From the IMG/VR virus record IMGVR_UViG_3300033067_001437, positions 1 through 31,001 of that record: a stretch of DNA of 31,001 bases. One strand, given 5' to 3'. Each line of letters begins with the position of its first letter. The first letter of the stretch is position 1. The DNA is from a virus. Taxonomy: Duplodnaviria > Caudoviricetes. The notes beneath the pieces are model-generated. The model searched no databases. It saw only the letters and a list, made by a program, of their open reading frames with translations, and had not been told where the DNA came from. Below are positions 524 to 14,539 of this stretch, in pieces. The position numbers and the translations under genes were made by a program.

Positions 524-927
524 CAGCCCGCCCGCCCAACCAACAACGACTTCAGCAACGCGTTCTCCTGCTGCAGCCGCTCCTTTGCCTCCCGCTCGAC
601 GCGGGCCTGGCGCTTCCACTCGTCCTCGACTTCCTTCAGTTCGTAGCCGCGGCGCAGGGCCAGCCAGATCAGCGGAACCTCGTTGCCGCAGACATCCATC
701 AGCTTCTGCAGCCGCTCCTGCGGGAAGTGGGCCTGGCCGGTCTTGATGCGCGACCACTGTGCCGCATCGATGCCCAGGGCGCGGCACAGCTCCTTGTCGT
801 CCAGACCAGCGATCTGCTGGCACATCAGGATGGCCGCCGTCATCGTCGGCAGCCGTGCCACCAGGGCCGGATCCACCTTCTGCATTGCCGGCTTCATCGG
901 CAGGTCAAACTGTTCAGGAGCGCCCAT
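523..927 (-). CDS. CII-like / XRE HTH transcriptional regulator
   Basis: HTH-like DDKELCRALGIDAAQWSRIKTG, C-terminal coiled coil, position downstream of cro. Confidence 0.65.
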   Translation of the reverse strand: MGAPEQFDLPMKPAMQKVDPALVARLPTMTAAILMCQQIAGLDDKELCRALGIDAAQWSRIKTGQAHFPQERLQKLMDVCGNEVPLIWLALRRGYELKEVEDEWKRQARVEREAKERLQQENALLKSLLVGRAG

Positions 928-977
928 GAGCAACGACCCTCAATTCAATTGATTGCTGTTGACGGTCGAAATGACCG

Positions 978-1014
978 AAAAAAAGAACCGGGCCCCGCGA
1001 TCGCGGAAGCCCGG
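978..1014 (-). terminator. Intrinsic terminator (tR1-like position between cro and cII-like gene)
   Basis: Minus strand CCGGGCTTCCGCGATCGCGGGGCCCGG hairpin followed by TTCTTTTTTT. Confidence 0.65.
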
Positions 1015-1113
1015 CCAACCCCAACAGAGGAGGTGCTGACGTGAAACAAGGCGGCCAGTCCATGACGGATAGAATTGACAGCGCGACCCATCAACCCACC
1101 GAAAGGACTGGCC

Positions 1114-1662
1114 ATGACCATGCACACCATCCACTTCATGCGGGATATCACGCCGGATACCCTGACTGGACTGCAAAACGCGGCCATGAGCGCCATCAGT
1201 GCCAATGCCTCGGAGATCACGATTTATCTCTCCAGTTCAGGGGGCCTGACCGATCAGGCGTTCGCCGCCTACCACTTCATCCGATCTTTGCCCATTCCCG
1301 TCACCATTCACTGCATTGGGAACATCGAGTCCATGGCCGTCGTCATGTTTCTGGCCGCCGATACCCGACTGATCGTTCCCCATGGAAAGATCAAGATTCA
1401 CCCCATGCACTGGGGATTCACGGGTGGAACAGTGGACCACGACCGGCTTGCCGAGTACGTCGCCTCCCTCAATTTCGACGCGGAGCGCTATGCGGCCATC
1501 TTCGACGAGCGCACACAGGGAGCGAATCAGCCGGTGGATGTCCGCGCCCATCTCGGGGGTCAAGCGAAACTGTTGGGGTCCGCCGAAGGCATGGCCTCCG
1601 GGATAGCCACCGGAATTGCGGACGCCGCAGTTCCTGCAGGGGCAACCAAGTGGTGGGTCTAG
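1114..1662 (+). CDS. ClpP-family serine protease, moron-like insertion
   Basis: ITIYLSSSGG, GNIESMA (catalytic Ser context) and IHP motifs of the ClpP fold; AAAGGA RBS before ATG 1114. Confidence 0.8.
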   Translation: MTMHTIHFMRDITPDTLTGLQNAAMSAISANASEITIYLSSSGGLTDQAFAAYHFIRSLPIPVTIHCIGNIESMAVVMFLAADTRLIVPHGKIKIHPMHWGFTGGTVDHDRLAEYVASLNFDAERYAAIFDERTQGANQPVDVRAHLGGQAKLLGSAEGMASGIATGIADAAVPAGATKWWV

Positions 1663-1676
1663 GGAGCAAACACCCA

Positions 1677-1922
1677 TCACGCCGCCTCCTTCTGCTCGCA
1701 ACGCGTGGCCCGGAGGTATCCCCAATCCACGTCTGGGCGCAGGTCTTCGCAGGTGACGGCGCCGTTGGTGGCGCGTTCTATGGATGGGCAGCGTTCTGCG
1801 GGGATTGGACGGCGCCCGGTTTCCCATTGACTCACTGCCGATGGGGTGACGCTCAGCACACCAGCAAGCACCCTACGGCCACCCAAAACCTTGCAAGCGC
1901 GCGTTATCGATTCGCTTCTCAT
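1677..1922 (-). CDS. cro: Cro-like (YdaS family) regulator
   Basis: LSVTPSAVSQW HTH and IERATNGAVTCEDLRPDVDW, typical of the YdaS/Cro family. Confidence 0.85.
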   Translation of the reverse strand: MRSESITRACKVLGGRRVLAGVLSVTPSAVSQWETGRRPIPAERCPSIERATNGAVTCEDLRPDVDWGYLRATRCEQKEAA

Positions 1923-1928
1923 TCGCGC

Positions 1929-1957
1929 ACAGTATAGCAATGCTCACCAACTGTCAA
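1929..1957 (-). promoter_or_regulatory. PR-like sigma70 promoter for cro with operator-like AGCAATGCT in the spacer
   Basis: TTGACA(1957-1952)-17 bp-TACTGT(1934-1929); predicted +1 falls at about the cro ATG (1922). Confidence 0.65.
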
Positions 1958-1960
1958 GCC

Positions 1961-1989
1961 TTGACTGTTGGTTAGCGTTGCTCTATTCT
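1961..1989 (+). promoter_or_regulatory. PL-like sigma70 promoter of the early operon with operator-like AGCGTTGCT in the spacer
   Basis: TTGACT(1961-1966)-17 bp-TATTCT(1984-1989). Confidence 0.7.
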
Positions 1990-2152
1990 TAGCACCGTCA
2001 CTCCACGTCCAGGCTTACTGAAAAGTCGATTGATGGCGCGATGACCGGCCGCCTGGGCCGAACGAACCGGGCCGCAGCCTGAGAGCGCAACAGGCCGTAA
2101 CGGGAGAACGAAAGCCCCGCGACATTCCGGGAGAGGCCGGTCAAGTTGGGGG

Positions 2153-2344
2153 ATGGCGATGACACGCTTGGAACCGACCACCGAGGATCTGCGCTCCGCA
2201 TTCGACCGGGTCAAGGTCTTGCGCTTCCGTGGCTGGACGTTCGAACGCGCCATGGCCACGCCGCTGATCCGGGCTGCGCTCAGGCTTTCTGCCTTATCCA
2301 GGCTTCGCGGTGCGCCCTGCCCCACTCAGGTTCAACTTTTCTGA
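2153..2344 (+). CDS. Hypothetical early protein
   Basis: First ORF after the promoter and leader, G-rich RBS. Confidence 0.55.
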   Translation: MAMTRLEPTTEDLRSAFDRVKVLRFRGWTFERAMATPLIRAALRLSALSRLRGAPCPTQVQLF

Positions 2345-2354
2345 GGACCTCCGC

Positions 2355-2618
2355 ATGATCACCACCGCCCGAACCGACTGGATCAACCGCCGTGTCGAGC
2401 AGATGATGCTCGACGACACCTCTACCGTAGAGATCGTCGAGGACATCCAAGCCCACGGCGGCGTGGCACATATCGGACTCTGCGCCGCTCTGCGCCGGGT
2501 CATCATTGCCGAAAGCCGCGTGGCCGAAATCCAGGCCCTCGACGACGCCAGGGACATCGTCCAGGCGTTCGCGTTCCTGCGCGCCTCCAACGAATACGAC
2601 CGGAGGGCCGCAGCATGA
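2355..2618 (+). CDS. Hypothetical early protein
   Basis: GAGG RBS, ATG 2355, GC3-rich codons, ATGA overlap with next gene. Confidence 0.6.
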   Translation: MITTARTDWINRRVEQMMLDDTSTVEIVEDIQAHGGVAHIGLCAALRRVIIAESRVAEIQALDDARDIVQAFAFLRASNEYDRRAAA

Positions 2619-2806
2619 GCCCCGGCGCCTGCGCCATCTTCTACCCGCCGCGGGAGACCTTCCTGGCCGCCGTGCAGGAAGCCCTGGCCGACCAGCCCCA
2701 CATCCAGGCCAAGCTCTGCACCGATGGCCGGCGCGTGGCCTGGCTGCCGCGTCGCCCGGCCGGCTGGTGGCCCATCAACACACTCATCGTCAAGGAGGCC
2801 GCATGA
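2615..2806 (+). CDS. Hypothetical early protein
   Basis: GGAGG RBS; ATGA overlaps on both sides. Confidence 0.6.
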   Translation: MSPGACAIFYPPRETFLAAVQEALADQPHIQAKLCTDGRRVAWLPRRPAGWWPINTLIVKEAA

Positions 2807-2988
2807 TCGCCCACCTGAAGCTCTACCTCTTGCGTCGCCGGCTGCGCGCCGTGCAGCGCAACGTCACTGAGATCCGCGAGACCCTGGCTTTCGGCCATAG
2901 CCTGCTGGCCCGCCAGGTGCAGCAGGAGCAGGCCCTGAAGGCGCAGATCCGCGCCATGGAAGTGTTCGGCGGGAGGATCGCAGCGTGA
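2803..2988 (+). CDS. Hypothetical early protein (coiled-coil)
   Basis: AAGGAGG RBS, ATG 2803 (MIAHLKLY...), coupled to neighbours. Confidence 0.6.
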   Translation: MIAHLKLYLLRRRLRAVQRNVTEIRETLAFGHSLLARQVQQEQALKAQIRAMEVFGGRIAA

Positions 2989-3101
2989 GCATCCTCATCA
3001 TCACCTGGGCCTCCACCCTGGCCATCGTGCTGCTCTTCATCGCTGGCGCCGGCCACGCCTCTGCAGGCCGCGGCCGCCGCGACACGGACGGGAGCCGCTG
3101 A
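2985..3101 (+). CDS. Small membrane peptide (38 aa), not in ORF track
   Basis: GGAGG RBS, GTG overlapping upstream stop; MSILIITWASTLAIVLLFIAGAG hydrophobic stretch. Confidence 0.5.
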   Translation: MSILIITWASTLAIVLLFIAGAGHASAGRGRRDTDGSR

Positions 3102-3286
3102 TGGCCGCCACCGAACACGAACAGACCCTGACGCGGGCCAACGTGACCCTGCTGCAGGAACTCAACCACCAGGCCCGGCAGCTTGTCGTCGCCGGCCACA
3201 TCGTGCGCATGCTCCGGTCGATGCCCATTCATGACTGGAACGAAGCCCAGGAGGCACTGAAGAAATGGGACGCCCTGCAAGCATGA
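3101..3286 (+). CDS. Hypothetical early protein
   Basis: TGATG overlap, GGAG RBS. Confidence 0.55.
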   Translation: MAATEHEQTLTRANVTLLQELNHQARQLVVAGHIVRMLRSMPIHDWNEAQEALKKWDALQA

Positions 3287-3843
3287 CACCCAAGCCCGGC
3301 ACCAAGGCGGACATCGCCATCCTGTTCATCAAGCACCGGGGCGTCGCCAGATCTTCCGAGATCGCCGCCGCCTGCGAAATGCCGCAGAGCCACGTGGCCT
3401 CGACGCTGGGCCCCTACGTAGACAAGGGCGTGCTCATCTGCTGCAAGGTCAGCAGCCCGGGCAAGCCCGACACCAACGAATATCGGATCGGCGCCGGCAT
3501 CACCTCGCGTACGCAGGTGCCCGAGCTGCAGTTCGTTCCGAGCAAGACGCCCCAGCGGACGGTGGGCCAAAACATCCGCAGCGGTCCATCGGCTCCTCCC
3601 ATGACTCCTCCCGCCGAGGGGACCGCCGTTGCCAATAGAGCGCCCATCCCGTCCGACCCTACTCAGGCTGCCAAGCCCGGGCGGGATGGTGCGCGCAACG
3701 AGATCCGATTGAGCATCGACGACGACGCCCGCCTGTCGATCACCCTGGCCGACGGCCAGTCCGACCCCCTGCGCCTGACGCCGGAAGAGACGCTGGCGCT
3801 GGGGGACTTCCTTGTCTGTACCCAGCAACTCTGGAGACCCTGA
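3283..3843 (+). CDS. Hypothetical protein with N-terminal winged-HTH-like region
   Basis: RSSEIAAACEMPQSHVASTLGPYVDKGVL pattern; ATGA coupling. Confidence 0.55.
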   Translation: MTPKPGTKADIAILFIKHRGVARSSEIAAACEMPQSHVASTLGPYVDKGVLICCKVSSPGKPDTNEYRIGAGITSRTQVPELQFVPSKTPQRTVGQNIRSGPSAPPMTPPAEGTAVANRAPIPSDPTQAAKPGRDGARNEIRLSIDDDARLSITLADGQSDPLRLTPEETLALGDFLVCTQQLWRP

Positions 3844-4184
3844 TGGCAAAACCTATCCACGAAACCCTCCGTCATATTGGTGGCGGCGTATTCATCGACA
3901 CGGCCAGCGACAGGATGGCAGAGCTCGTCAATGCCGTCGATAGCAGCGGCAAGGCCGGAAAGCTGACCATCGAAATCAAGGTCAAGAAGGCCACCCGCGG
4001 CGGCGCCATGCACATCACCGGCAACGTGAAACTCTCCAAGCCGGCCGAGGAACCCATGGAGGCGATGCTCTTCGCCACCCCGGAGGGCAACCTGGTCGCT
4101 GATGACCCGCGCCAGACCAAGCTTGACCTGAAGAGCGTACCCGGCACCACCGACATCACCACCGCCAACCTCAAGACCGCGTAA
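3843..4184 (+). CDS. Conserved phage protein, partner of DUF2303 (YfdP-like)
   Basis: GKAGKLTIEIKVK...FATPEGNLVADDPRQTKLDL motif; adjacent to DUF2303 gene. Confidence 0.75.
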   Translation: MAKPIHETLRHIGGGVFIDTASDRMAELVNAVDSSGKAGKLTIEIKVKKATRGGAMHITGNVKLSKPAEEPMEAMLFATPEGNLVADDPRQTKLDLKSVPGTTDITTANLKTA

Positions 4185-4198
4185 GGACCCCGCCCACC

Positions 4199-5059
4199 AT
4201 GGAAACCACCAACGAACTCAGCAACATCGCCCAGACCCTGGCCAAGGAAATGAAGTCTCCCATCGAGATCATCAGCGAGCCGGGCGGCAACATGAAGCGC
4301 TGCGCGCTCCCGCCCGGCTGGCAACTGGTCGAGAAGGACGACGACGCCAAGATCCTGGCGGCCCCGCGGCGCAAGATCGCCAAGGTCAAGCTGCACGACT
4401 CCGAGAGCTTCATCGAGTACATCAAGCGCCACGGCTCGCTGACCGACAGCACCATCTGGTGCGTGGCCGATTACAAGGCCGGCAAGGTCAATTTCCTCGG
4501 CATCCTCAACGACCACGGCGAGGACGAAAACAAGCCGGACTGGCGCGACCACCGCGCCACCTTCTATCCCGAGTTCTCCGAGGAATGGACCCGCTGGATC
4601 AACAAGAACAAGCAGGCGTTCAACCAGGCCGACTTCGCAGCATTCATCGAGGACAACCTGAAGGACATCGTAAGCCACGACAACAGCCCGACCGGCGCAC
4701 AGATGCTCGAGATGGCGCTGACCTTCGAGGCCAACCAGGACATGCGCTTCAAGTCGGCGATCCGGCTGCAGAACGGCGGCGTGCAGATGAGCTTCGTTCA
4801 GGACGACGATGCCCAGACGCTGCAGAAGATGCAGGTCTTCGACCGCTTCTCCATCGGCATCCCCGTGTTCTGGAACGGCGACGCCTACCGGGTCGACGCA
4901 CGCCTCCGCTACCGTGTGCGCGACGGAAAGCTGACGTTCTGGTTCGAACTGATGCGCCAGGACAAGGTGCTAGAGGCCGCCACTCAGACGCTGATCACCG
5001 TCATCCGCGAGAAGACCGGCAATCCGTTCTTCTTTGGCGAGCCGTTCATCGCTGCATAA
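4199..5059 (+). CDS. DUF2303 (YfdQ-like) phage protein
   Basis: ILNDH...WRDHRA, FNQADFAAFIEDN and IPVF...ARLRYR motifs. Confidence 0.85.
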   Translation: METTNELSNIAQTLAKEMKSPIEIISEPGGNMKRCALPPGWQLVEKDDDAKILAAPRRKIAKVKLHDSESFIEYIKRHGSLTDSTIWCVADYKAGKVNFLGILNDHGEDENKPDWRDHRATFYPEFSEEWTRWINKNKQAFNQADFAAFIEDNLKDIVSHDNSPTGAQMLEMALTFEANQDMRFKSAIRLQNGGVQMSFVQDDDAQTLQKMQVFDRFSIGIPVFWNGDAYRVDARLRYRVRDGKLTFWFELMRQDKVLEAATQTLITVIREKTGNPFFFGEPFIAA

Positions 5060-5072
5060 CAGGGGGACCGAA

Positions 5073-5690
5073 ATGAACGCACCCGCCACACCCGAAATCA
5101 CCACCATCCTGGGCACCGCCCTCGCCGGTGGCTTCTACGCCGGCCGGATCCGCCAGGACGATGGCCGCATCTACGCCCTGTTCGTCGCCCCGAAGGCAGA
5201 AGGCGAGCACGCACCGGCCATCTGGATCCCGGACTACCAGGCAGTGCCCGGCGCCCAGTCTTACAACGACGGCCTCGCCAACACCCAGGCCATGGCCGCC
5301 GCGGGCAGCCAGCTTGCCCAGTGGGCCCTGGGCTTGAGTATCGGCGGCCGCAATGACTGGTACCTGCCCAGCCAGGACGAGCTCGAGATCATCTACCGCA
5401 ACCTCAAGCCCACCGAGGATGAGAACAGCGGCTGGTATCGCTCCGGAATGAACCCGTCCGCCGTCGAACCGACGCGACCCTACCTGCCGACGGCCCCGTT
5501 GCAGACGCCTGCAAGCCTCTTCCAGGCCGGTGCCGCCGAAGCCTTCGAAGCGGACTGGTACTGGACGTCCACGCAGCACGCAGCCAATTCGGACTGTGCC
5601 TGGTACCAGCACTTCGACGACGGCAACCAGGACGACTACTGCACGAGCCTCAAGCTGCGCGCCCGCGCCGTCCGCAGATTGCCCATTTAG
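5073..5690 (+). CDS. DGR target protein 1 (DUF1566 / CLec-like, 205 aa)
   Basis: DWYLPSQDEL and WYWTSTQ motifs, C-terminal RARAVRR; carries VR1. Confidence 0.9.
   Translation: MNAPATPEITTILGTALAGGFYAGRIRQDDGRIYALFVAPKAEGEHAPAIWIPDYQAVPGAQSYNDGLANTQAMAAAGSQLAQWALGLSIGGRNDWYLPSQDELEIIYRNLKPTEDENSGWYRSGMNPSAVEPTRPYLPTAPLQTPASLFQAGAAEAFEADWYWTSTQHAANSDCAWYQHFDDGNQDDYCTSLKLRARAVRRLPI
5573..5679 (+). repeat. DGR variable repeat VR1 (107 bp)
   Basis: Aligns ungapped to TR 6662-6768 with 11 mismatches, all at TR adenines. Confidence 0.97.
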
Positions 5691-5719
5691 TCCTTCATCA
5701 ATTTTCCATCGGAGGTCAC

Positions 5720-6103
5720 ATGACCACTGCTGCACACAAGGCCGAATGGCTGCGCAACAACACCAAGAAGGGCGAGGTCTACGCGGGCCTCATCCTTGGC
5801 CAGGAGGGCGAGAAGGATTACCACCTGTTCCTGCTGCCCACAGAAGCGGTCGGCATCACCTGGAAGAACGCCGTCGCCTGGGCGAAGAAGGAAGGTGGGC
5901 AACTGCCGAGCCGCCGCGAGCTCCGCCTGCTGGCCGCCAATGCCTTCGACTGCTTTGCCAAGGACGCCTACTGGTCCAGCGAGCAGCACGCAGCCGATTC
6001 GGACTCTGCCTGGTACCAGTACTTCTACGACGGCTACCAGGACGACTACTACACGGACAACAAGCTGCGCGCCCGCGCCGTCCGCAGATCAGTCATTGAG
6101 TAA
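5720..6103 (+). CDS. DGR target protein 2 (DUF1566 / CLec-like, 127 aa)
   Basis: TWKNAVAWAKKEGGQLPSRREL and AYWSSEQ motifs, RARAVRR; carries VR2; GGAGG RBS. Confidence 0.9.
   Translation: MTTAAHKAEWLRNNTKKGEVYAGLILGQEGEKDYHLFLLPTEAVGITWKNAVAWAKKEGGQLPSRRELRLLAANAFDCFAKDAYWSSEQHAADSDSAWYQYFYDGYQDDYYTDNKLRARAVRRSVIE
5983..6089 (+). repeat. DGR variable repeat VR2 (107 bp)
   Basis: Aligns ungapped to TR with 10 mismatches, all at TR adenines. Confidence 0.97.
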
Positions 6104-6133
6104 TTCAGCCCTTTCCTGATCCTTTCATCGGCC

Positions 6134-6487
6134 ATGGCCCTCCATACCCAGCTTCCGATTTACAAGGTCGCCTACGACTTTCTGGACATCATCACTGAGC
6201 TCGCCAGGAGCATGCCCCGGGACTTCAAGCAGTCCATCGGCGGCAAGCTCCGCGACGAGTGCGTCCAGATCATCGTGGAGATCTTCCGGGCGAACTGCGC
6301 ACGCGAGAAAGCGCCTCACCTCGAGGCCCTCATCGAGCGTCTGCAGGTCGCCGAGCTGCTGCTGCGCCTCTCCTGCGACAAGCGCCTGATCTCCCGGGCC
6401 CAGTACGCCAAGGCGATCGCGCTGACCAACAGCATCGGCAAGCAGGCGGGAGGCTGGCGCCGCTCCGCACTTTCGCCCGCTTCATGA
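6134..6487 (+). CDS. avd: DGR accessory variability determinant (four-helix bundle)
   Basis: LPIYKVAYDFL...MPRDFKQSIG...IGKQAGGW signature; sits between targets and TR. Confidence 0.9.
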   Translation: MALHTQLPIYKVAYDFLDIITELARSMPRDFKQSIGGKLRDECVQIIVEIFRANCAREKAPHLEALIERLQVAELLLRLSCDKRLISRAQYAKAIALTNSIGKQAGGWRRSALSPAS

Positions 6488-7890
6488 GCGCCAAGGCCCC
6501 CATGACTGTGCGAACTCTTGATCTGGTCGTGCCGCTGGCCCACGAGGCCACCGACATGCGCATCACGGAAAGCGGCGGCGGTGTCCGCGACCGCTCCGGC
6601 GCAGTTTCCCCGCTGATCGGCACCCGCCTTCGGCTGGGCGACGTGGATAGCACGACAGGATGCAGCACGCAGCCAATTCGGACTATGCCTGGTACCAGAA
6701 CTTCAACAACGGCAACCAGAACAACTACAACACGAACAACAAGCTGCGCGCCCGCGCCGTCCGCAGATGAAGCGCGGTGCCCCCAGGCCGACTTTCCTTT
6801 CTCCGAACTGGTCGACGCCTACTTCGACTGCCGCCGGGCCAAGCGCAACAGCATCAGCGCCCTGGCCTTCGAGGCCCAGCTCGAGCGCAACCTGTGCGAC
6901 CTTCACGACGAGCTCCACGGCGGCACCTATCGGCCCGGCCGCAGCGTCTGTTTCGTCATCATCCGGCCGAAGCCGCGGGAGGTCTGGGCCGCTGAATTCC
7001 GTGATCGGGTGGTCCACCACCTGTTCTACAACCGGATCGCCCCGCGCTTCTACGCCCGCTTCATCGCCGACAGCTGCGCCTGCATCCCAGGGCGCGGCAC
7101 CCTGTACGCCGCCCAGCGCCTCGAAGCCAAGGTGCGCAGCATCACCGAGAACTGGCGCCGGCCGGCCTGGTACCTGAAGCTCGACCTAGCCAATTTCTTC
7201 GTCAGCATCGACAAGCACATCCTGGCCGGCCAGCTGGCCCGGCATATTCCGGAGCCCTGGTGGCGGCACCTGGGCGAGACCATCCTCTATCACGACCCGC
7301 GCCAGGACTTCGAATACCGGGGCCCGGCGCACCTGCTCGAGCGCGTGCCGCCTCACAAGCGGCTGACCAGCCAGCCAGCCCACCTGGGCCTGCCCATCGG
7401 CAACCTGTCGAGCCAGTTCTTTGCCAACGTCCATCTCGACGCCCTGGACCAGCACGTCAAGCACCGCATCGGCGCCCGGCACTACATCCGCTACGTCGAT
7501 GACTTCATCCTGCTGCACGAATCTCCCCAGTGGCTCAACGCCGCCCGAGAGCAGATCGAAGCGTTTCTGTCCGATCGGCTGCATGCCCGGCTGAACCCCG
7601 CCAAGACGGTGCTGCAACCGATTGCCCGCTGCGTCGACTTCGTTGGCCACGTCATCCGGCCCTGGCATCGCACCACCCGACCGCGCACCGTCGGCGAGGC
7701 CGTGCGCCGCGTGGCCACCCTCGACGCTGCCGCCCTGTTCGAAACCGCTAACAGCTACTTCGGCCTACTCCGTCAGGCCAGCCACAGCCACCACGACCGG
7801 GCCCGTCTCGCCAATGCCCTTCGCCGCCGTGGCCACTGCATTGCCGGAGACCTGACCAAGACGTACAGGAGATCGACTTGCTCCAACTGA
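6484..7890 (+). CDS. DGR reverse transcriptase (start uncertain; in-frame ATGs include 6484 and 6685)
   Basis: FRDRVVHH, LKLDLANFFVSID, GLPIGNLSSQFFAN and YIRYVDDF motifs. Confidence 0.93.
   Translation: MSAKAPMTVRTLDLVVPLAHEATDMRITESGGGVRDRSGAVSPLIGTRLRLGDVDSTTGCSTQPIRTMPGTRTSTTATRTTTTRTTSCAPAPSADEARCPQADFPFSELVDAYFDCRRAKRNSISALAFEAQLERNLCDLHDELHGGTYRPGRSVCFVIIRPKPREVWAAEFRDRVVHHLFYNRIAPRFYARFIADSCACIPGRGTLYAAQRLEAKVRSITENWRRPAWYLKLDLANFFVSIDKHILAGQLARHIPEPWWRHLGETILYHDPRQDFEYRGPAHLLERVPPHKRLTSQPAHLGLPIGNLSSQFFANVHLDALDQHVKHRIGARHYIRYVDDFILLHESPQWLNAAREQIEAFLSDRLHARLNPAKTVLQPIARCVDFVGHVIRPWHRTTRPRTVGEAVRRVATLDAAALFETANSYFGLLRQASHSHHDRARLANALRRRGHCIAGDLTKTYRRSTCSN
6662..6768 (+). ncRNA. DGR template repeat (TR), core of the DGR RNA
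   Basis: AAC-rich copy of both VRs (9 AAC plus 1 AAT codons in the target frame, 34 A) located between avd and the RT core. Confidence 0.95.
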
Positions 7891-9578
7891 ACCTAGACGT
7901 CCACGACGAGATCGTCATCGACAACTTCGCCGGCGGTGGCGGTGCCTCTCATGGCATAGAGGCTGCCATCGGGCGCCGGATCGACGTGGCCATCAACCAC
8001 GACCCGGAAGCGATTGCAGTCCACCGGGCAAATCACCCGGAAACCGAGCACCACTGCGAATCCGTGTGGGAGGTGGATCCGCGCACCGTCAAGCCTGGCC
8101 GCCCCATTGGCCTGCTATGGCTGTCTCCGGACTGCAAGCACTTCAGCAAGGCCAAAGGCGGAAAGCCGGTGGAGAAGAACATCCGCGGCCTCGCCTGGGT
8201 CGCGCTGCGCTGGGCGGCGATCCGCAAGCCCCGCGTGATCATGCTCGAGAACGTGGAGGAATTCGTCACCTGGGGGCCGCTGACCGAAGGCCCGGACGGC
8301 AAGATGCGCCCCTGCCCGAAGCGCAAGGGCCGGGAGTTCAACGCCTTCCGCAATGCCCTGCAGCGGCACGGCTACCAGGTGGAGTTCCGCGAGCTGCGGG
8401 CCTGCGACTACGGCGCGCCGACGATCCGCAAGCGCCTGTTCCTGATCGCCCGGCGCGACGGGCAGCCGATCGTCTGGCCGGCGCCGACCCATGGCGACCC
8501 AAAGAGCGCGGCCGTCAAGTCCGGCAAGCTCCGGCCGTGGCGCACGGCAGCCGAGTGCATCGACTGGTCGCTGGATTGCCCCTCCATTTTCGAGCGCACC
8601 CGGCCGCTGGCCGACGCCACCTGTCGGCGGATTGCCAAGGGGATCATGCGCTACGTGATCAATGCGGCCGAGCCGTTCATCGTCAATACGCGGAATGGAG
8701 AACGAGAAGGTCAGGCGCCGCGCACCAGGGGAATCGGAGATCCATTCTGGACGATCACCGCGCAGGGATCCCAGCATGCTGTGGTAGCTCCGGTACTTAC
8801 CGAGCACGCCAACGCCTCAAGCCCGCGCAGCTGGTCTCCTGAAGATCCACTGAGGACGATCTGCGCGCAGACCAAGGGAGGTCACCATGCCCTGGTCACC
8901 GCCTTCCTGGCCAAGCACTTCACCGGCGTGGTCGGCAGCGACCTGCGGCAGCCCGCGGCCACCGTGACAGCCGTGGACCACCATAGCCTGGTGGCAGCCA
9001 ATCTGGTGCACATGGGCCACGGCGAGCAATCCGCCTCCGGAGCGAAGCGCTGGAGCCACGGAGTGCGTGATGCCGAGGTTCCGCTCAACACCATCACAGC
9101 CAACGGCATCCCGGCCGGAATAGTCACCAGCAACCTGGTCAAGCTCAAAGGAACCTGCAAGGACGGCCAACCCGTAACCGAGCCTATCCACACAATCCAG
9201 GCCAGCGGGAACCACTACGCCGAGGTCCGCGCATTCCTCACGGCCTACTACGGCGTCGACCAAGATCCGCGCCTTGAAGACCCTATGCATACGGTCACGG
9301 CCAAGGACAGATTCGGCTTGGTCACCGTCTCCGGACAGGACTACGCCATCGCCGACATCGGCCTGCGCATGCTCGCACCGAAGGAGCTATTCAAGGCCCA
9401 GGGGTTCCCGGCCGGCTACATCTTCGAGTGGGGTATCGACGAGGACGGCCGGCGGATCGCCCTGACCAAATCCACCCAGGTCCGCCTGGTCGGAAACAGC
9501 GTCTGCCCGCCGCTGGCCGATGCGCTGGTCCGGGAGAACCTTCCGGAGATGAGCATCCAGAAGCGGAGAGCCGCATGA
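7878..9578 (+). CDS. C5 cytosine DNA methyltransferase (orphan, phage type)
   Basis: DNFAGGGG (motif I), SPDC (IV), MLENV (VI), RKRLF (VIII), VGNSV (X); AGGAG RBS before TTG. Confidence 0.92.
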   Translation: MLQLNLDVHDEIVIDNFAGGGGASHGIEAAIGRRIDVAINHDPEAIAVHRANHPETEHHCESVWEVDPRTVKPGRPIGLLWLSPDCKHFSKAKGGKPVEKNIRGLAWVALRWAAIRKPRVIMLENVEEFVTWGPLTEGPDGKMRPCPKRKGREFNAFRNALQRHGYQVEFRELRACDYGAPTIRKRLFLIARRDGQPIVWPAPTHGDPKSAAVKSGKLRPWRTAAECIDWSLDCPSIFERTRPLADATCRRIAKGIMRYVINAAEPFIVNTRNGEREGQAPRTRGIGDPFWTITAQGSQHAVVAPVLTEHANASSPRSWSPEDPLRTICAQTKGGHHALVTAFLAKHFTGVVGSDLRQPAATVTAVDHHSLVAANLVHMGHGEQSASGAKRWSHGVRDAEVPLNTITANGIPAGIVTSNLVKLKGTCKDGQPVTEPIHTIQASGNHYAEVRAFLTAYYGVDQDPRLEDPMHTVTAKDRFGLVTVSGQDYAIADIGLRMLAPKELFKAQGFPAGYIFEWGIDEDGRRIALTKSTQVRLVGNSVCPPLADALVRENLPEMSIQKRRAA

Positions 9579-9859
9579 CCCTGCACCCATCCATGACCAT
9601 CGTCGGCCAACTTCAGGCCCACCACAACCCGTCACCAGCCGCCCATGGCGAACCCAAGGTGCCGACCATTCGACGCTCAGCGGAGATTCGCGGACAGGTG
9701 CTCGCTGCACTCAAGGAAGGCCCGGCATCCGTGACCGAGATCGCCTGGGATCTGGATGTCTCGGAGGCGACGGTGTACTCGCACATCGGCAAGTTGGTCG
9801 ATGCGGAGACCGTCCGGAGGATCAATGGGCGGCCGGTGAGGTACGAGGTGAAACCATGA
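9575..9859 (+). CDS. Winged-HTH protein
   Basis: LKEGPASVTEIAWDLDVSEATVYSHIGKL; ATGA overlap with the methyltransferase. Confidence 0.7.
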   Translation: MTLHPSMTIVGQLQAHHNPSPAAHGEPKVPTIRRSAEIRGQVLAALKEGPASVTEIAWDLDVSEATVYSHIGKLVDAETVRRINGRPVRYEVKP

Positions 9860-10158
9860 GCAATTGGCAAACGACAAACGACGTTCTGGCCAAGCTATTC
9901 AACCTTCCACGCCTGACCAAGCGCGCCGTCATTGTGTTGCGCGGAGATGGTCCACCGAGCATTCGTGTGACGCGCCTCCTCCTAGATAAGGACGATGTCC
10001 GCCAGGTCACGGAGAGATTCGAATTGCGAAAAGTAGGCGCTGGCGAGACGGCACCATGCCATGTATGCGGATGGAAAGATGGCTACCACGACAAACGTTG
10101 CAGTGGGTATCTGGTTGATCCTGAGACGGGCGAGCCAATACCGACGCATAACGTCTAA
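9856..10158 (+). CDS. Hypothetical protein; stop codon lies inside attC-A
   Basis: GAGGTG RBS, ATGA overlap; ends ...THNV* across GCATAAC. Confidence 0.6.
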   Translation: MSNWQTTNDVLAKLFNLPRLTKRAVIVLRGDGPPSIRVTRLLLDKDDVRQVTERFELRKVGAGETAPCHVCGWKDGYHDKRCSGYLVDPETGEPIPTHNV

Positions 10159-10212
10159 ATTAACCGGCTCGCGGGCCTTATCCGCGAGTCCGGGTTGAAT
10201 GCGGGGTTATGC
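10146..10212 (-). repeat. attC site A (67 bp)
   Basis: Minus strand GCATAAC-CCCGC-ATT[C]AAC[C]CGG[A]CTCGCGG...CCGCGAGCCGGTTAAT-TTAGAC-GTTATGC: R and L boxes with extrahelical bases. Confidence 0.88.
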
Positions 10213-10236
10213 CTCGCCAACTTACGGAGAACGGAA

Positions 10237-10440
10237 ATGGCAAAGGTGAACATTTCAGTGGAAAGCGTGACGGACATGCAGCCAGTCCGGTTTAGCAGGC
10301 TGGCAATAGAGATAGGTTGTTCTATGAGCGAAGGACAAATGCTAGACGCGCTCAGGAGCTTTCTGGAAAACGTGACCGACGCCACTTGGTACGAATGGCT
10401 CAAGGAACTGGCCCCGGAGTACCTGAAAGACGAAGAGTGA
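10237..10440 (+). CDS. Cassette 3 ORF, hypothetical (67 aa)
   Basis: GGAG RBS, ATG 10237; fills the space between attC-A and attC-B. Confidence 0.7.
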   Translation: MAKVNISVESVTDMQPVRFSRLAIEIGCSMSEGQMLDALRSFLENVTDATWYEWLKELAPEYLKDEE

Positions 10441-10441
10441 G

Positions 10442-10498
10442 GCATAACGCTAGGTTAAGCGGCGCCGGCACGGCGTCCGCTTGAACCGCCAGTTCGGC
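10442..10498 (-). repeat. attC site B (57 bp)
   Basis: Minus strand GCCGAAC-TGGCG-GTT[C]AAGCGG[A]CGCCG-TGC-CGGCGCCGCTTAAC-CTAGC-GTTATGC, the short classical attC architecture. Confidence 0.92.
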
Positions 10499-10505
10499 TT
10501 CACTG

Positions 10506-10922
10506 GTGAACGAAGCCAAAACACTTGGAGAACTACGAATGCTGAACATGCAAGCCCTGATCGACGGCATGAACGCGCACAGTCAGCGCGAGCGCGCCGC
10601 CACACAACTGACCCTTGGCGCGCTGATTGCGGCGCTGGAGAAGATGCCGGCCGACGCCCAGGTGGCGAACCTGCGCGACCCGGACAGCTACCGAGGCTAC
10701 TACTCCGACCTGTACTTCGAGCGCTGCGACGGGACGCGCCCGGCCGCTGAACTGCTGGCCGAGTGCAAGGCTGCGATGGGGCAGGTGTTCACTGGCTACA
10801 AGGGCGGCGACTTCGTGATGGGAGCGCTGACGCCGCTGTGGGTGGCAAGCTACGGAAGCTGCGGGCCGAAATTGATGGCTGTGCACGCTGGCGGCGAACT
10901 GGAAACGGCCGAGGACGAGTGA
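10506..10922 (+). CDS. Cassette 2 ORF, hypothetical phage-like protein
   Basis: Fills attC-B to attC-C; SYRGYYSDL...FTGYKGGDF; true start may be 10539 or 10548. Confidence 0.75.
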   Translation: MNEAKTLGELRMLNMQALIDGMNAHSQRERAATQLTLGALIAALEKMPADAQVANLRDPDSYRGYYSDLYFERCDGTRPAAELLAECKAAMGQVFTGYKGGDFVMGALTPLWVASYGSCGPKLMAVHAGGELETAEDE

Positions 10923-10923
10923 A

Positions 10924-10995
10924 GCCGAACGACCAAGGTAACGGGCCGAGGCAAGCGCAGCTTGCCGAAGGTCCGCGTTGACCGCCGGGTTAGCC
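10924..10995 (-). repeat. attC site C (72 bp)
   Basis: Minus strand GGCTAAC-CCGGC-GGT[C]AACG[C]GG[A]CC...GGCAAGC-TGC-GCTTGCC...GGCCCGTTACC-TTGGTC-GTTCGGC. Confidence 0.88.
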
Positions 10996-11008
10996 GGCAT
11001 GAGCACAA

Positions 11009-11476
11009 ATGGCAACTGAATATAAGGCCTGCCCAAAGTGCAAGCGGACACTCCTTCGAACGGAGTGGTTCTACCGCCGGAAGTCGGGTGAGCGCATGCG
11101 TTGGGAAAGCTATTGTAAGGACTGTTGTCGAGCGGCCAATGGGAAGGGCGGGAAGAACTACGAAAAGGCAAAGGAGCGCCACCGTTCCTGGTATCACAGC
11201 AATCGAACAGACCAACTAGAAAAAAATAGGATGCGCCAAGTTTCCATCACCCAGCGCAGGAAAGAAGAAGGATATTTCACTGAACAAGCACGGAGAGGAA
11301 GAGAAGCTCTGTCGACCGGATACGTAAAGAGCCTGTTCAGGTATTCAGTACCCAGGGACTTGGTCTCCGACGACATGGTGAATTTGAAACGAATGCACAT
11401 TGAAGTTAAGCGAGCGCGCAAGCTCATAACCAACGAACTGGAGAAGATCAATGAAACCAGCAAAGACAACACTTGA
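11009..11476 (+). CDS. Cassette 1 ORF a, basic protein with CxxC...CxxC zinc ribbon
   Basis: CPKC...CKDC; visibly AT-richer than the backbone. Confidence 0.7.
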   Translation: MATEYKACPKCKRTLLRTEWFYRRKSGERMRWESYCKDCCRAANGKGGKNYEKAKERHRSWYHSNRTDQLEKNRMRQVSITQRRKEEGYFTEQARRGREALSTGYVKSLFRYSVPRDLVSDDMVNLKRMHIEVKRARKLITNELEKINETSKDNT

Positions 11477-11741
11477 AGCCTTGGAAGATATGAAGGCCGT
11501 TGAGACTCAGGGCGACCTACGCCGGATAGTTGCTAACAGCCTTTTGGCATTGGCGCGCAAGGAGATCAGCGCGACAGATGTTGAAGCGATGGCGAAGGGG
11601 CTCGATTCAATTAGCAACAGCCTCAACGCCGAAATAAAGGTGGCAAAGACAAGCATCGAGTTGCGAGAAAAGGGCGCGAGCCTTGGTGCCGTTACGCATC
11701 TTGGCCGCATGCTCATCGGGGATGCCAAGGATGCCGGCTAA
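11451..11741 (+). CDS. Cassette 1 ORF b, hypothetical helical protein
   Basis: GGAG RBS; TAA stop lies within the GGCTAAC core. Confidence 0.7.
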   Translation: MKPAKTTLEALEDMKAVETQGDLRRIVANSLLALARKEISATDVEAMAKGLDSISNSLNAEIKVAKTSIELREKGASLGAVTHLGRMLIGDAKDAG

Positions 11742-11773
11742 CTCAAATTCTCCGACACCAGGTGACGGTTAAC
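11736..11773 (-). other. Putative attI site
   Basis: Minus-strand core GTTAGCC with no attC hairpin, a second GTTAACC 24 nt upstream, located just 5' of intI. Confidence 0.7.
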
Positions 11774-12229
11774 ACACCACGAACACCCGTGGAGGCGCAC
11801 AAATGCTGACACTCGACAGAACAAACGCGACACAGGAGCCGGCGTTATACGACACGCCGCCGGCTCGGCAACAGCCGAAGCTGCTCGACCGCATGCGTGA
11901 GGCGATCAGGGTCAAGCACTACAGCCTGGCCACGGAGCGCACCTACATCCACTGGGCGAAGCGCTTCATCTACTTTCACGGGAAGCGCCACCCGGCAGCG
12001 ATGGGCGCCCAGGAAGTCGAAGCATTCCTGTCAGCGCTGGCGACGGAGTTGACCGTCAGCGCCAGCACACAGAACCAGGCCATGCACGCCCTGCTGTTCC
12101 TGTACAAGGAAGTCCTGCACATCACCCTTCCCTGGCTGGACAACATCACCAGAGCCAAGGTATCGAAGCGGCTTCCGTCGGTTCTCACGGTTTCCGAGGT
12201 TCAAGCGCTGCTGCGAAGACTGCCCAACG

Positions 12230-12269
12230 ACGGCAGGGGTCACTGGTTCGATCCCAGTACCGCCCACCA
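12230..12269 (+). other. 3' half of a tRNA (Val-like), phage att core
   Basis: ACGGCAGGGGTCACTGGTTCGATCCCAGTACCGCCCACCA contains the T-arm ACTGG-TTCGATC-CCAGT, acceptor strand and CCA; the 5' half is absent. Confidence 0.85.
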
Positions 12270-12300
12270 AAATCAAGCACTTACGGTGCCCGTCCAAGGA

Positions 12301-12369
12301 AGCTATGGCGCAAAAACCGCCATAATCAGGCCAAAACCGCGCTGTTACGCCATAGTTCACGCCATAGCT
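12301..12369. repeat. Four CGCCATA(G/A) repeats, putative integrase arm-type sites
   Basis: 12301-12310 (inverted), 12318-12327, 12348-12357 and 12360-12369, next to the att core. Confidence 0.6.
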
Positions 12370-12373
12370 GGCG

Positions 12374-12796
12374 CTACTGGCTGATGTCGTACAGCTGCCC
12401 CGGCGTCACCCGGTGAAGGGCCCCCTCTCTGACGTACCGAGTACCCCCGGCCAGAGCGGACAGGATGGGCATCTCGCTGCAGAAATCCCGGCTGTTGGCC
12501 TGCCATTGGCGCTGCTGGAAGGCGATGGCCAGCAGGCCACCCAGGTCGTAGAGGTTGCCGATCCGGCTGCGCACCCAGCGCTCCGCCGCGGCCTCGTTCT
12601 GACAGGGAAGCTCGGCGAGCTCCCAGCGCGGGTAGTGCGCCTTGAAGTTTTCCAGGCCGATGCTGCGTACCCGGGGCCAGTGCGCCTCAATCACTTCCTG
12701 TCCGTACACGATGCCCACGTGCGACCAGTTGGACATGGTGGCCAGCCGGATGGTCAGGCTTCCAAGGGTCGGGGCGGCGCCGAAGATGAGGCGCAT
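12374..12796 (-). CDS. Permuted papain-like (YiiX/YaeF, NlpC/P60) protein
   Basis: WSHVGI...IEA...YD...FCSE, His-before-Cys order. Confidence 0.8.
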   Translation of the reverse strand: MRLIFGAAPTLGSLTIRLATMSNWSHVGIVYGQEVIEAHWPRVRSIGLENFKAHYPRWELAELPCQNEAAAERWVRSRIGNLYDLGGLLAIAFQQRQWQANSRDFCSEMPILSALAGGTRYVREGALHRVTPGQLYDISQ

Positions 12797-13194
12797 CAGT
12801 GCGGCCCGAAATCGAAACCCTGGGCCTGACCCAGGTTGGGCCCATTCACTCCGGCCGCGCTGGCCTTGTCGCCTTGAATCCGGAACGTGATGCTGAACCG
12901 GCCATTTCCCTTGAAGCCAAACCCGGACTGCCAGTAGGCCCGCGGGCCCTCTGCTGCCCAGCGGAGCATCCAGTACAGTCCGAACGGCCAGAGCAAACGG
13001 ATGAAGAAGATGGCATTAAAGAACAGGGCCTGATCGCTGCACAGGCGCGGGGTGAAGACCCACCGTCCGTCCTCCTTGAAGATCCAGGCGACGGCGACCG
13101 AGCGCATGGAGTCCTCATCGACGGTCAGCAGGTTTCCCAGCTTCCACATCAGCCAGGACTCGCCCGGGTGGCGCTCTTCCACGATCTTGGTCAT
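12796..13194 (-). CDS. Hypothetical protein
   Basis: Coupled ORF in the late operon. Confidence 0.65.
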   Translation of the reverse strand: MTKIVEERHPGESWLMWKLGNLLTVDEDSMRSVAVAWIFKEDGRWVFTPRLCSDQALFFNAIFFIRLLWPFGLYWMLRWAAEGPRAYWQSGFGFKGNGRFSITFRIQGDKASAAGVNGPNLGQAQGFDFGPH

Positions 13195-13565
13195 GGCTTG
13201 TAGACCTCGGTGGCGGTCGGCTTGGTGTTGAGGATCGCTGCCTTATCGACGGCGAATCCCTTGCTGATCAGCAGGTCCATGGCCGCGCCGATGTCGGCCG
13301 CCCGGCCGCGCAGATCGATGTACTGCCGCACCGTGCAGTCGGTGATCACGGCCTGCACCAGGGGGTCGGTCGAGGCCAGGATGGGCCACTTCTGCGCAGC
13401 GAATCTATCGAAGAACGCACCCCGGCTGATGTGCCAGTCCTCGGCCCGCTCGGGCTCAGGGACCGGGGCCGCCCGGTAGTGCGGGTAGTTCTCCGCCATC
13501 CAGGCCTCGTCGGCCATCACTGCGCCGGTGACGTTTCCAGCTTCATCAAGGATTTCGTAGCGCAT
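13191..13565 (-). CDS. Hypothetical tail-associated protein
   Basis: Follows the Gly-rich tail gene; ATG 13565 chosen. Confidence 0.6.
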   Translation of the reverse strand: MRYEILDEAGNVTGAVMADEAWMAENYPHYRAAPVPEPERAEDWHISRGAFFDRFAAQKWPILASTDPLVQAVITDCTVRQYIDLRGRAADIGAAMDLLISKGFAVDKAAILNTKPTATEVYKP

Positions 13566-13567
13566 GA

Positions 13568-14539
13568 TCACTCCCACTCGATAGTGACAAGGCCGTTGCC
13601 GCCGGCACCGACCGTGACGGCACCGCCAGAACCGATGGAGGCACCTCCACCACCAGCGCCGACACCACCAGCGCCTCCAACAACGGTACCGGTGGTGCCC
13701 GTTGATGCAGCACCGCCTCCGCCACCACAGGATCCGCCTGCGCCTCCACTTGGGGTTGCTGCGTTAGCGCCACCACTGCCTCCAGATCCGGCACCGCCGG
13801 CCGAGCCATTGCTGCTGGTCGCGCCGGCCGCACCGGAGGCGGTGTACTTCAGCAGCGGATTGCTGATCGCCGTCGTGATGTCATCGACAGACGTTTGCGC
13901 ACCGCGCCAAGATGCTCCCGGGGTGGTACCACTAGCCGCACCGCAGGCACCCCCACCTCCGCCGCCAACATTATTGGTAGAGGATGCGCCACCAGCACCA
14001 CCAACACCGCCCCCGCCACCTGATGTGTTACCCGTTCCAGATGCTGCTCCGCCAGCACCACCAGTTCCACGCAGAGAACCAGCCGCACCGCCGCCCCCGG
14101 AACTTCCCCCAGTTGTATTGGACGCATTCCCGCCCGCACCGCCAGAAGCTCCGAAGTCATAGGTTCCAGACGGCGCGCCGCCCGCGCCGCCGGTGGCCGT
14201 GGATCCTGCTGCTGCAGCACCGCCGACTGCGCCGTATCCTGCCGTGCTGGTCACCCCGGAGACCGTGAAAGATGTCGCCGTGGTCCCGCCGCCGGCACCG
14301 ACCGTGAAGGAGATCGAGACGCCTGCCGCAAGTATCAGTTCGCGCATCACAAAGGCCCCGCCGCCGCCGCCGGCTGCATTTCCGCCCGCGGTGCGAGAGC
14401 CACCGTTTCCGCCCGGGCCCACCGCGCAAAGGCGGTACTTTCCGGCCTTGGGCGTGGTGAAGCTGCCACTCGCTGGGAAGGCCAGGAAATTCTGGTATCC
14501 ACCCGCCGCGGATGGAAAGAACTGCGAAAGAGAACTCAT
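13568..14539 (-). CDS. Glycine-rich tail fibre / adhesin-like protein
   Basis: SGSFTTP...VGPGGNGG, poly-Gly tracts, C-terminal GGNGLVTIEW. Confidence 0.75.
   Translation of the reverse strand: MSSLSQFFPSAAGGYQNFLAFPASGSFTTPKAGKYRLCAVGPGGNGGSRTAGGNAAGGGGGAFVMRELILAAGVSISFTVGAGGGTTATSFTVSGVTSTAGYGAVGGAAAAGSTATGGAGGAPSGTYDFGASGGAGGNASNTTGGSSGGGGAAGSLRGTGGAGGAASGTGNTSGGGGGVGGAGGASSTNNVGGGGGGACGAASGTTPGASWRGAQTSVDDITTAISNPLLKYTASGAAGATSSNGSAGGAGSGGSGGANAATPSGGAGGSCGGGGGAASTGTTGTVVGGAGGVGAGGGGASIGSGGAVTVGAGGNGLVTIEWE

Follow-up and report, generated by a model that had tools for sequence, protein, structure and literature searches.

Reversed cassette genes in an integrase-truncated integron fragment of a temperate phage

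The 31,001-nucleotide stretch of viral DNA analysed here (hereafter the window; positions 1 to 31,001 of IMG/VR record IMGVR_UViG_3300033067_001437) very probably carries a piece of a temperate-phage integron that was captured and has a dead integrase; attI, attC and IntI keep their normal relative polarity, all cassette genes are on the bottom strand of attC, and the cassettes together with intI are likely transcribed as the distal end of the early operon of the phage and not from a Pc promoter. The reversed layout is real and lineage-wide, and it apparently constitutes an integron variant unpublished in the literature searched.

Results

Array anatomy and cassette genes

attC sites were sought on both strands across the 31 kb with a hand-written caller (not IntegronFinder) that looks for R'', 5 nt, an 8-nt L'' with an extra base and, further on, a 7-nt L', 5 or 6 nt and R'. 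Three sites with full L-box pairing were found, attC1 (10146..10212), attC2 (10442..10498) and attC3 (10924..10995), belonging to cassettes 1, 2 and 3; all have their top strand on minus, and the extra C of the 8-nt L'' reads on minus in each. In 30 dinucleotide shuffles, the mean was 0.23 strict sites, with 0 full-score sites. The attI (11736..11775, minus) comprises an R box (11736-11742), which matches R'' of attC3 at 7/7 positions, and upstream motifs that are conserved in 12 aligned loci, the window counted among them; it lies 60 nt before the intI start. Since R'' of all three cassettes is complementary at 7/7 positions to the R' or attI box at the opposite end, the cassette units are fixed at 10152-10447, 10448-10929 and 10930-11741. 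There are thus three cassettes in the window, the third of which has two ORFs, and a fourth is represented by its 3' stub. Compared with shuffled sequences, attC1 and attC2 fold far better (z -3.4 to -4.2) and attC3 shows no advantage on either strand (z -0.85 and +0.28); a search of Rfam gave no match inside the array. We also observed that the ends of cassette 2 (10492-10507 / 10915-10930) are complementary over 16 nt and those of cassette 3 (10989-11000 / 11731-11742) over 12 nt, in both cases beyond the 7-nt R boxes, and this extended complementarity may bear on cassette creation.

The ORFs of the array that we consider as genes are on plus. Cassette 1 (10237..10440) encodes 67 aa to which no function is assigned, and cassette 2 (10539..10922) encodes 127 aa of phrog_12889, a phage family without known function. 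The first gene of cassette 3 (11009..11476, 155 aa) has N-terminal CxxC pairs and a weak match to the endonuclease VII-like phrog_1035; the second (11451..11741, 96 aa) belongs to a viral family without known function and stops inside the attI R box. The stub (10040..10152, plus) continues the reading frame of a parental gene, with which it forms ORF 9856-10158; its DNA is 79-83% identical to that of genes in loci L155, L156 and L157 whose ends lie at attC or attI. Searching the ESM Atlas returned unnamed viral clusters only.

The first-pass annotation had placed the attC top strand on minus and four cassette ORFs on plus, with terminal stops at the R' ends. Both observations hold: three attC and attI are on minus, the genes are on plus, and the stops are TGA at 10438-10440, TGA at 10920-10922 and TAA at 11739-11741, the last within the attI R box. 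Start codons lie 14-41 nt past the attC end. A ribosome-site motif precedes the ATG of the plus genes (GGAG in three, GAG in one), and was absent from the five minus ORFs checked. Differences among homologues, counted at codon positions 1/2/3 of the plus frame, amount to 234/155/534, 196/111/438 and 4/2/12, most of them at the third and fewest at the second position. This frame is open in 10/10 and 3/3 copies of two genes and in 8/10 copies of a third, where both stops correspond to a codon added before the start. PHROG matches in the window array fell on two plus ORFs (one weak, E 4e-4) and on zero minus ORFs. Judged by these features, the plus ORFs are the cassette genes, and their orientation opposite to attC polarity is confirmed for this window at the sequence level.

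Polarity controls and cassette movement

With the same caller, a class 1 integron (L137, 3 sites) was canonical, its attC top strand coinciding with that of the annotated genes, as was the CALIN of phage TJE1 (L139, 3 sites), whose attC bottom strands recombine best according to the available text of Qi et al. (PMC9892861). The attC sites of the window have the polarity, relative to attI and intI, that is found in class 1 arrays and in chromosomal ones.

Cassette transfer provides a test that needs no extrahelical bases, yet agrees with the polarity given by the caller. Cassette 1 is 100% identical in L013/L152 (a single contig, whose IntI is about 65% identical to that of the window) and in L151, amid other neighbours, and 90% identical in L153. 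Both neighbours of the copies differ and the breaks fall at the AAC, while the upstream attC is intact in L013/L152, where a site identical to attC1 lies 5' of the same gene. Among 117 cassettes, 4 pairs with at least 90% identity have both neighbours new, and all of them (2 independent cassettes) keep the upstream attC; for the moved identical cassettes, upstream attC identity was 1.0 and 0.97 versus 0.6 and 0.48. When all 13 homologous pairs with new neighbours are considered, diverged ones included, the upstream attC is more similar in 9. L018 and L019 have their integrase in common and differ by whole cassettes. These comparisons show that cassettes have moved as units, with breaks at the predicted crossover.

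The phage IntI lineage and its chromosomal relatives

The IntI half of the window matched 28 IMG/VR loci, with a match-to-stop length of 310-344 aa in 26/28 (one is broken and one is cut by the contig end). Most relatives have an intact IntI, often beside a phage integrase, which follows intI in 17 of the 23 loci tested. IntI of the 3/3 relatives tested passed TIGR02249 (460-479 bits), and the relatives' IntI carries the integron-specific insertion, as judged by alignment. In the window and 19 loci, 76 cassettes were called, their ends matching at 7/7 positions in 58 and at 6/7 in 11.

Family matches were used for orientation; longest-ORF and stop-position heuristics are ambiguous on short phage cassettes. 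In viral arrays, PHROG matches were found for 23/108 plus ORFs versus 1/112 minus ORFs, and the sole minus match is weak and overlaps a plus-strand methyltransferase; 85/108 viral plus ORFs are without a family match, and orientation is thus read mostly from the minority with matches and from ORF anatomy. A scan of species genomes, from which the best 80 of 196 IntI relatives were taken, yielded 13 phage-like loci with PHROG matches for 14/41 plus versus 0/37 minus ORFs. Loci L070-L136, from the same best 80 of 196, had Pfam matches for 32/103 minus versus 0/92 plus ORFs, totals that include a few ORFs of the phage-like L100 and L106 (0 Pfam matches). The libraries differ, with PHROGs employed for phage sets and Pfam for chromosomal sets; Pfam gave 0 matches on both strands of prophage loci L057-L068 (0/17, 0/20). 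In each of eight apparent exceptions, the plus ORF runs past the boundary into attC or attI, and 4/4 of the ORFs of this type that were scanned have PHROG matches. In the survey of ORF versus attC orientation that had been proposed at the first pass, phage arrays are therefore reversed and chromosomal relatives canonical. The comparative data also support a reversed design, as a lineage-wide layout, and the co-directionality of cassettes and intI with the phage early operon.

In many phage cassettes the ORF is still open at the crossover and is completed by codons of the next attC or of attI (examples are L001 4382-5137, L010 9674-9970, L019 9653-9928 and L026 9541-9948); the predicted C-terminus of such ORFs varies by array position. 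In L017, three extra attC with their top strand on minus are located 3' of intI (12078-13038), outside the main array.

In a quick tree of 100 rows, which left out three short genome rows, L016, L026, L028 and near-duplicates, all the 21 viral and the 13 genome-derived IntIs grouped together (SH-aLRT 92). A careful tree was built from 41 chosen rows, and there a branch with support of 96/93 unites 19 phage-context rows, the window among them, with three further phage-context rows branching separately; L002, L004, L009 and L011 were labelled by context, and their contigs end within the array. The tree requires 2 changes to account for the reversed arrays, and one origin is found in 22% of bootstrap trees; the trees are compatible with a single origin of reversed arrays but do not establish it. 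Another small IntI branch (L084, L100, L106) lies beside phage integrases, apart from the main phage branch, and is apparently reversed as well (matches for 1/9 plus and 0/6 minus ORFs).

An exact search of metagenome contigs with the window intI gave 0 matches. Searched against 72,556 plasmids, the array gave no match, and against 50,697 annotated phages it gave a single patch of 69%; IntI of the window's clade was absent among annotated phages, the best being at 56%. In virus Rctr41k, an IntI-like gene is present, and the 10.6 kb read contained no credible attC.

Genomic context and expression

The window belongs to a temperate phage of the lambdoid type, which the contig does not cover in full. 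Its early operon runs on plus from about 2000 to 12230, and head and tail genes are on minus, from 31001 down to 12374. A weak sigma70-like promoter candidate (1961..1989, plus, 9/12) is found at the head of the early (pL-like) operon, 8 kb 5' of the array. It is the sole plus-strand consensus match within 900-13000; 2 promoter-like sites were found in all, versus 1.7 expected by chance.

Pc-like promoters on minus scoring at least 9/12 were found in 0/31 phage loci versus 25/51 chromosomal loci, a contrast that is probably confounded by base composition; the best Pc-like match in the window is 7/12. Pint-like matches were present in 1/31 phage loci versus 12/51 chromosomal loci. A scan for LexA boxes was uninformative, since the chromosomal controls gave 0/51 as did the phage loci (0/31), and no replication direction was evident from GC skew. 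As phage loci display no Pc-like promoter, intI and the cassettes probably depend on the early transcript. We infer that cassettes and intI are co-transcribed from the phage early promoter, and that reversed cassettes would probably be silent in host integrons, where they would be antisense to Pc.

Other features of the early region were also recorded. A Cro-like gene on minus and the promoter-like site on plus stand back to back at 1677-2300, and no recognisable repressor gene was found between them; this, together with the loss of int, suggests that the phage is perhaps no longer able to lysogenise. A ClpP-like gene (1075-1662), located between the Cro-like and CII-like genes, opposes the direction of its neighbours. 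Within the early operon, 5034-7890 carries a diversity-generating retroelement consisting of two Lcl_C target genes, Avd, an RT-15 RNA, a template region and a reverse transcriptase frame; the variable regions of the Lcl_C genes differ from the template mostly at adenines.

A truncated intI and a recombinant origin

The 5' half of intI (11803..12229, plus) holds 142 codons of an integron integrase whose catalytic domain is absent. It aligns to positions 1-116 of 315 of TIGR02249 with 138 bits, below the cut-off of 265, and is 77% identical to the intact IntI of L001; no second IntI was matched among the window ORFs scanned. This half is joined to the phage att core, namely the 3' half of tRNA-Val (12230..12269, plus). 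Before the join, the intI bases mimic an anticodon-stem 5' arm that is separated by seven bases from the 3' arm, as would be expected of a secondary att site. Loose ends at the att core are tRNA 5' halves, and L158 holds the parental attP.

Identity between the window and L158, the parent, is 100% over 9963-10039 and 12230-14500; between these flanks L158 carries an excisionase, an integrase, an endonuclease-like gene and the full attP. Window 10040-12229 (2190 bp) thus replaces L158 78-1957 (1880 bp, the xis-int-P arm). The left junction (10028..10039, plus) is an about 11/12-nt microhomology between the parent and a donor-like cassette: identity to L158 ends at 10039, and that to the cassettes of L155 and L156 starts at 10029. 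A metagenome search for the parental gene gave 1 short weak match.

An assembly artefact at the intI/att join was considered and excluded by a 13,836-nt contig of run X5, from a second study, which spans 10962-14000 with no differences. Contigs of other runs span the links attC1-gene 1, attC2-gene 2 and attC3-gene 3-attI, and no bridge from cassette 1 to attC2 was present among the matches listed. X2 and X6 display an alternative join, 10153->10971, the DNA between being unknown; the array therefore exists in at least two forms, and the window shows the cassette order of one. In X6, the join 10039->12230 (DNA between likewise unknown) has a depth of 170 versus 19-29 for the array, which fits a dominant parent form, and in X5 the array and its flanks are equally deep.

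In the simplest history, the phage integrase would have recombined the tRNA-Val attP with a secondary site in the intI of another phage, and an illegitimate microhomology join at 10039 would then have put the integron fragment in place of xis-int. The fragment was likely captured from another phage. With intI cut in half at the tRNA-Val att core, it is predicted that it cannot shuffle on its own. Three attC beside a truncated intI correspond to the definition of a CALIN (at least 2 attC and no intact intI nearby), and from its sequence the window copy is a frozen, CALIN-like fragment. The proposal that the newest cassette is promoter-distal is thus retained for relatives with an intact IntI, where it is an expectation, but does not extend to this genome, whose intI is without its catalytic half.

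Cargo and cassette pool

Matches in phage arrays include DNA methyltransferases, PAPS-reductase-like and Mom-like proteins, an exonuclease, a DHH phosphoesterase, Lar-like proteins and phage families without known function. A translated comparison of 134 phage and 100 chromosomal cassettes gave zero matches between the two sets. A diverged homologue in another phage array was found for 40/134 phage cassettes, duplicates being retained, and 2/100 chromosomal cassettes have a match among themselves. These comparative data support the distinct phage cassette pool that had been put forward, in a suggestive manner, considering that the comparison is small, that duplicates were retained and that chromosomal cassettes rarely match each other.

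The 28 homologues of the cassette 2 family comprise 7 with an attC, top strand on minus, right after the stop, 4 with an R box only and 17 with neither; in the cassette 3 family, 2/10 homologues are within arrays and 8/10 are without attC. Cassette 1 (10152-10447) is deeper than other parts of the array (55 versus 5 in X2, 269 versus 29 in X6) and was found in sludge and digester runs without phage flanks; it seems to be a widely shared cassette. The RNA evidence consists of contigs, with shares of 0.07-0.10; those of run X15 cover cassette 1 and pieces of attC, and carry neither strand nor level.

Discussion

The phage arrays resemble class 1 and sedentary chromosomal integrons in having an IntI with the integron-specific domain (here, in the relatives), an attI at the 5' end of intI, and attC with R''/L''/L'/R' boxes, R''/R' complementarity and extrahelical bases of the same polarity with respect to intI. 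They differ in that the phage genes are on the bottom strand and run toward intI, a Pc-like promoter was not found, many ORFs extend to a stop within the following attC or attI, and the cargo consists of phage early genes at the end of a temperate-phage early operon. With regard to a complete integron, the window has attI and attC boxes but lacks a full IntI and a Pc with top-strand genes. The proposed capture event is akin to that of lambda bio/gal-type transducing phages, which arise by one att-core join and one illegitimate join with loss of int and xis; the captured DNA is here another phage's integron, and not host genes.

The phage integrons and CALINs of Qi et al. (PMC9892861), as described in the available text, likewise include attC arrays in phages and methyltransferase cargo, and their complete phage integrons are captured Vibrio, Shewanella or class 1 elements. 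That text reports no genes reversed relative to attC, although its figures or annotation could show them without comment. The inverted integron-integrase group (Treponema and others; accessible text of PMC4889954) also has intI and cassette genes in the same direction, but here intI is on plus and the attC top strands are on minus, unlike what defines that group. Searches of PMC-CC and bioRxiv, which cover few subscription journals, turned up no account of phage arrays with genes reversed relative to attC.

It could be argued that these are ordinary cassettes inserted upside down through top-strand recombination, or that the polarity call is wrong. According to the portion of PMC5027507 consulted, top-strand recombination does give inverted insertion, though rarely, and strand choice is determined by more than the extrahelical bases. 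Such an insertion would however flip attC along with the gene, whereas every attC here is normal relative to attI and intI; moreover, identical cassettes break at the R' end with the attC remaining upstream of the gene, and we regard this explanation as extremely improbable. The possibility that attC sites are mostly inert leftovers, or RNA hairpins between resident phage genes, with no cassette movement, is favoured by the dead intI of this genome and by the occurrence of the same families without attC in many phages (17/28 for cassette 2, 8/10 for cassette 3). This reading, which we consider highly improbable, is at odds with a 100% identical cassette beside an IntI that is about 65% identical, with both neighbours switching exactly at the crossover, and with whole-cassette differences between L018 and L019 under a common integrase.

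Cassettes could also bring their own promoters, in the manner of toxin-antitoxin cassettes, in which case orientation would be unrelated to the phage operon. Vibrio arrays do contain promoter-bearing cassettes and antisense promoters (10.1101/2023.11.21.568050, in its accessible part), and the candidate early promoter is both weak and far away. Nevertheless, the short space between attC end and start codon leaves little room beyond a ribosome site, the array yielded no promoter-like site on plus, and independent promoters would not impose one orientation on all arrays, making this alternative very improbable. Reading of reversed cassettes from the early operon thus remains the preferred explanation.

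In intact relatives, IntI would be made from the same early transcript and would recombine the plus attC strand, which is both the bottom and the coding strand, and new cassettes would be added just before intI, farthest from the promoter. Because attI abuts the intI start and faces away, only reversed genes would be expressible from an upstream phage promoter. This limit on expression would select a phage-specific pool of DNA methyltransferases, PAPS-reductase-like proteins, Mom-like modifiers, Lar-like proteins and other small early genes. In lambda, the replication origin is on the rightward-operon side. An attC bottom strand on the lagging-strand template recombines more (PMC5371416, in the text available); were the origin of this phage, which is outside the window, likewise placed, reversed cassettes would be co-directional with replication and in the high-excision orientation.

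A broader view, for and against which we see equal chances, is that temperate phages of Betaproteobacteria run an integron lineage of their own, with a true IntI in the early operon and a mirror-image cassette pool that would be made de novo from ordinary phage genes, traded among phages and silent in host integrons; recombination would act on the coding strand, and shuffling in lytic growth would thereby be promoted by transcription and outward replication. If this is true, genes that exist both as cassettes and as plain genes would reveal how cassettes are made.

In integron theory, bottom-strand selectivity serves to place genes under Pc (PMC5027507 and PMC5371416, in the parts available). 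A lineage with the same chemistry but with every gene reversed implies that expression can follow a second logic and that the cassette pool is not simply shareable between hosts and phages. Given a cargo rich in DNA modification, phages may use the device as a counter-defence bank. Defence cassettes have been reported for host integrons, and a phage counter-defence bank would mirror them. The genome described here illustrates one route to phage CALINs, in which an array is captured and the integrase is lost. Cassette creation is described as largely unknown (PMC5371416, in its accessible text), and the same families with and without attC in close phages would offer before-and-after pairs for cassette making.
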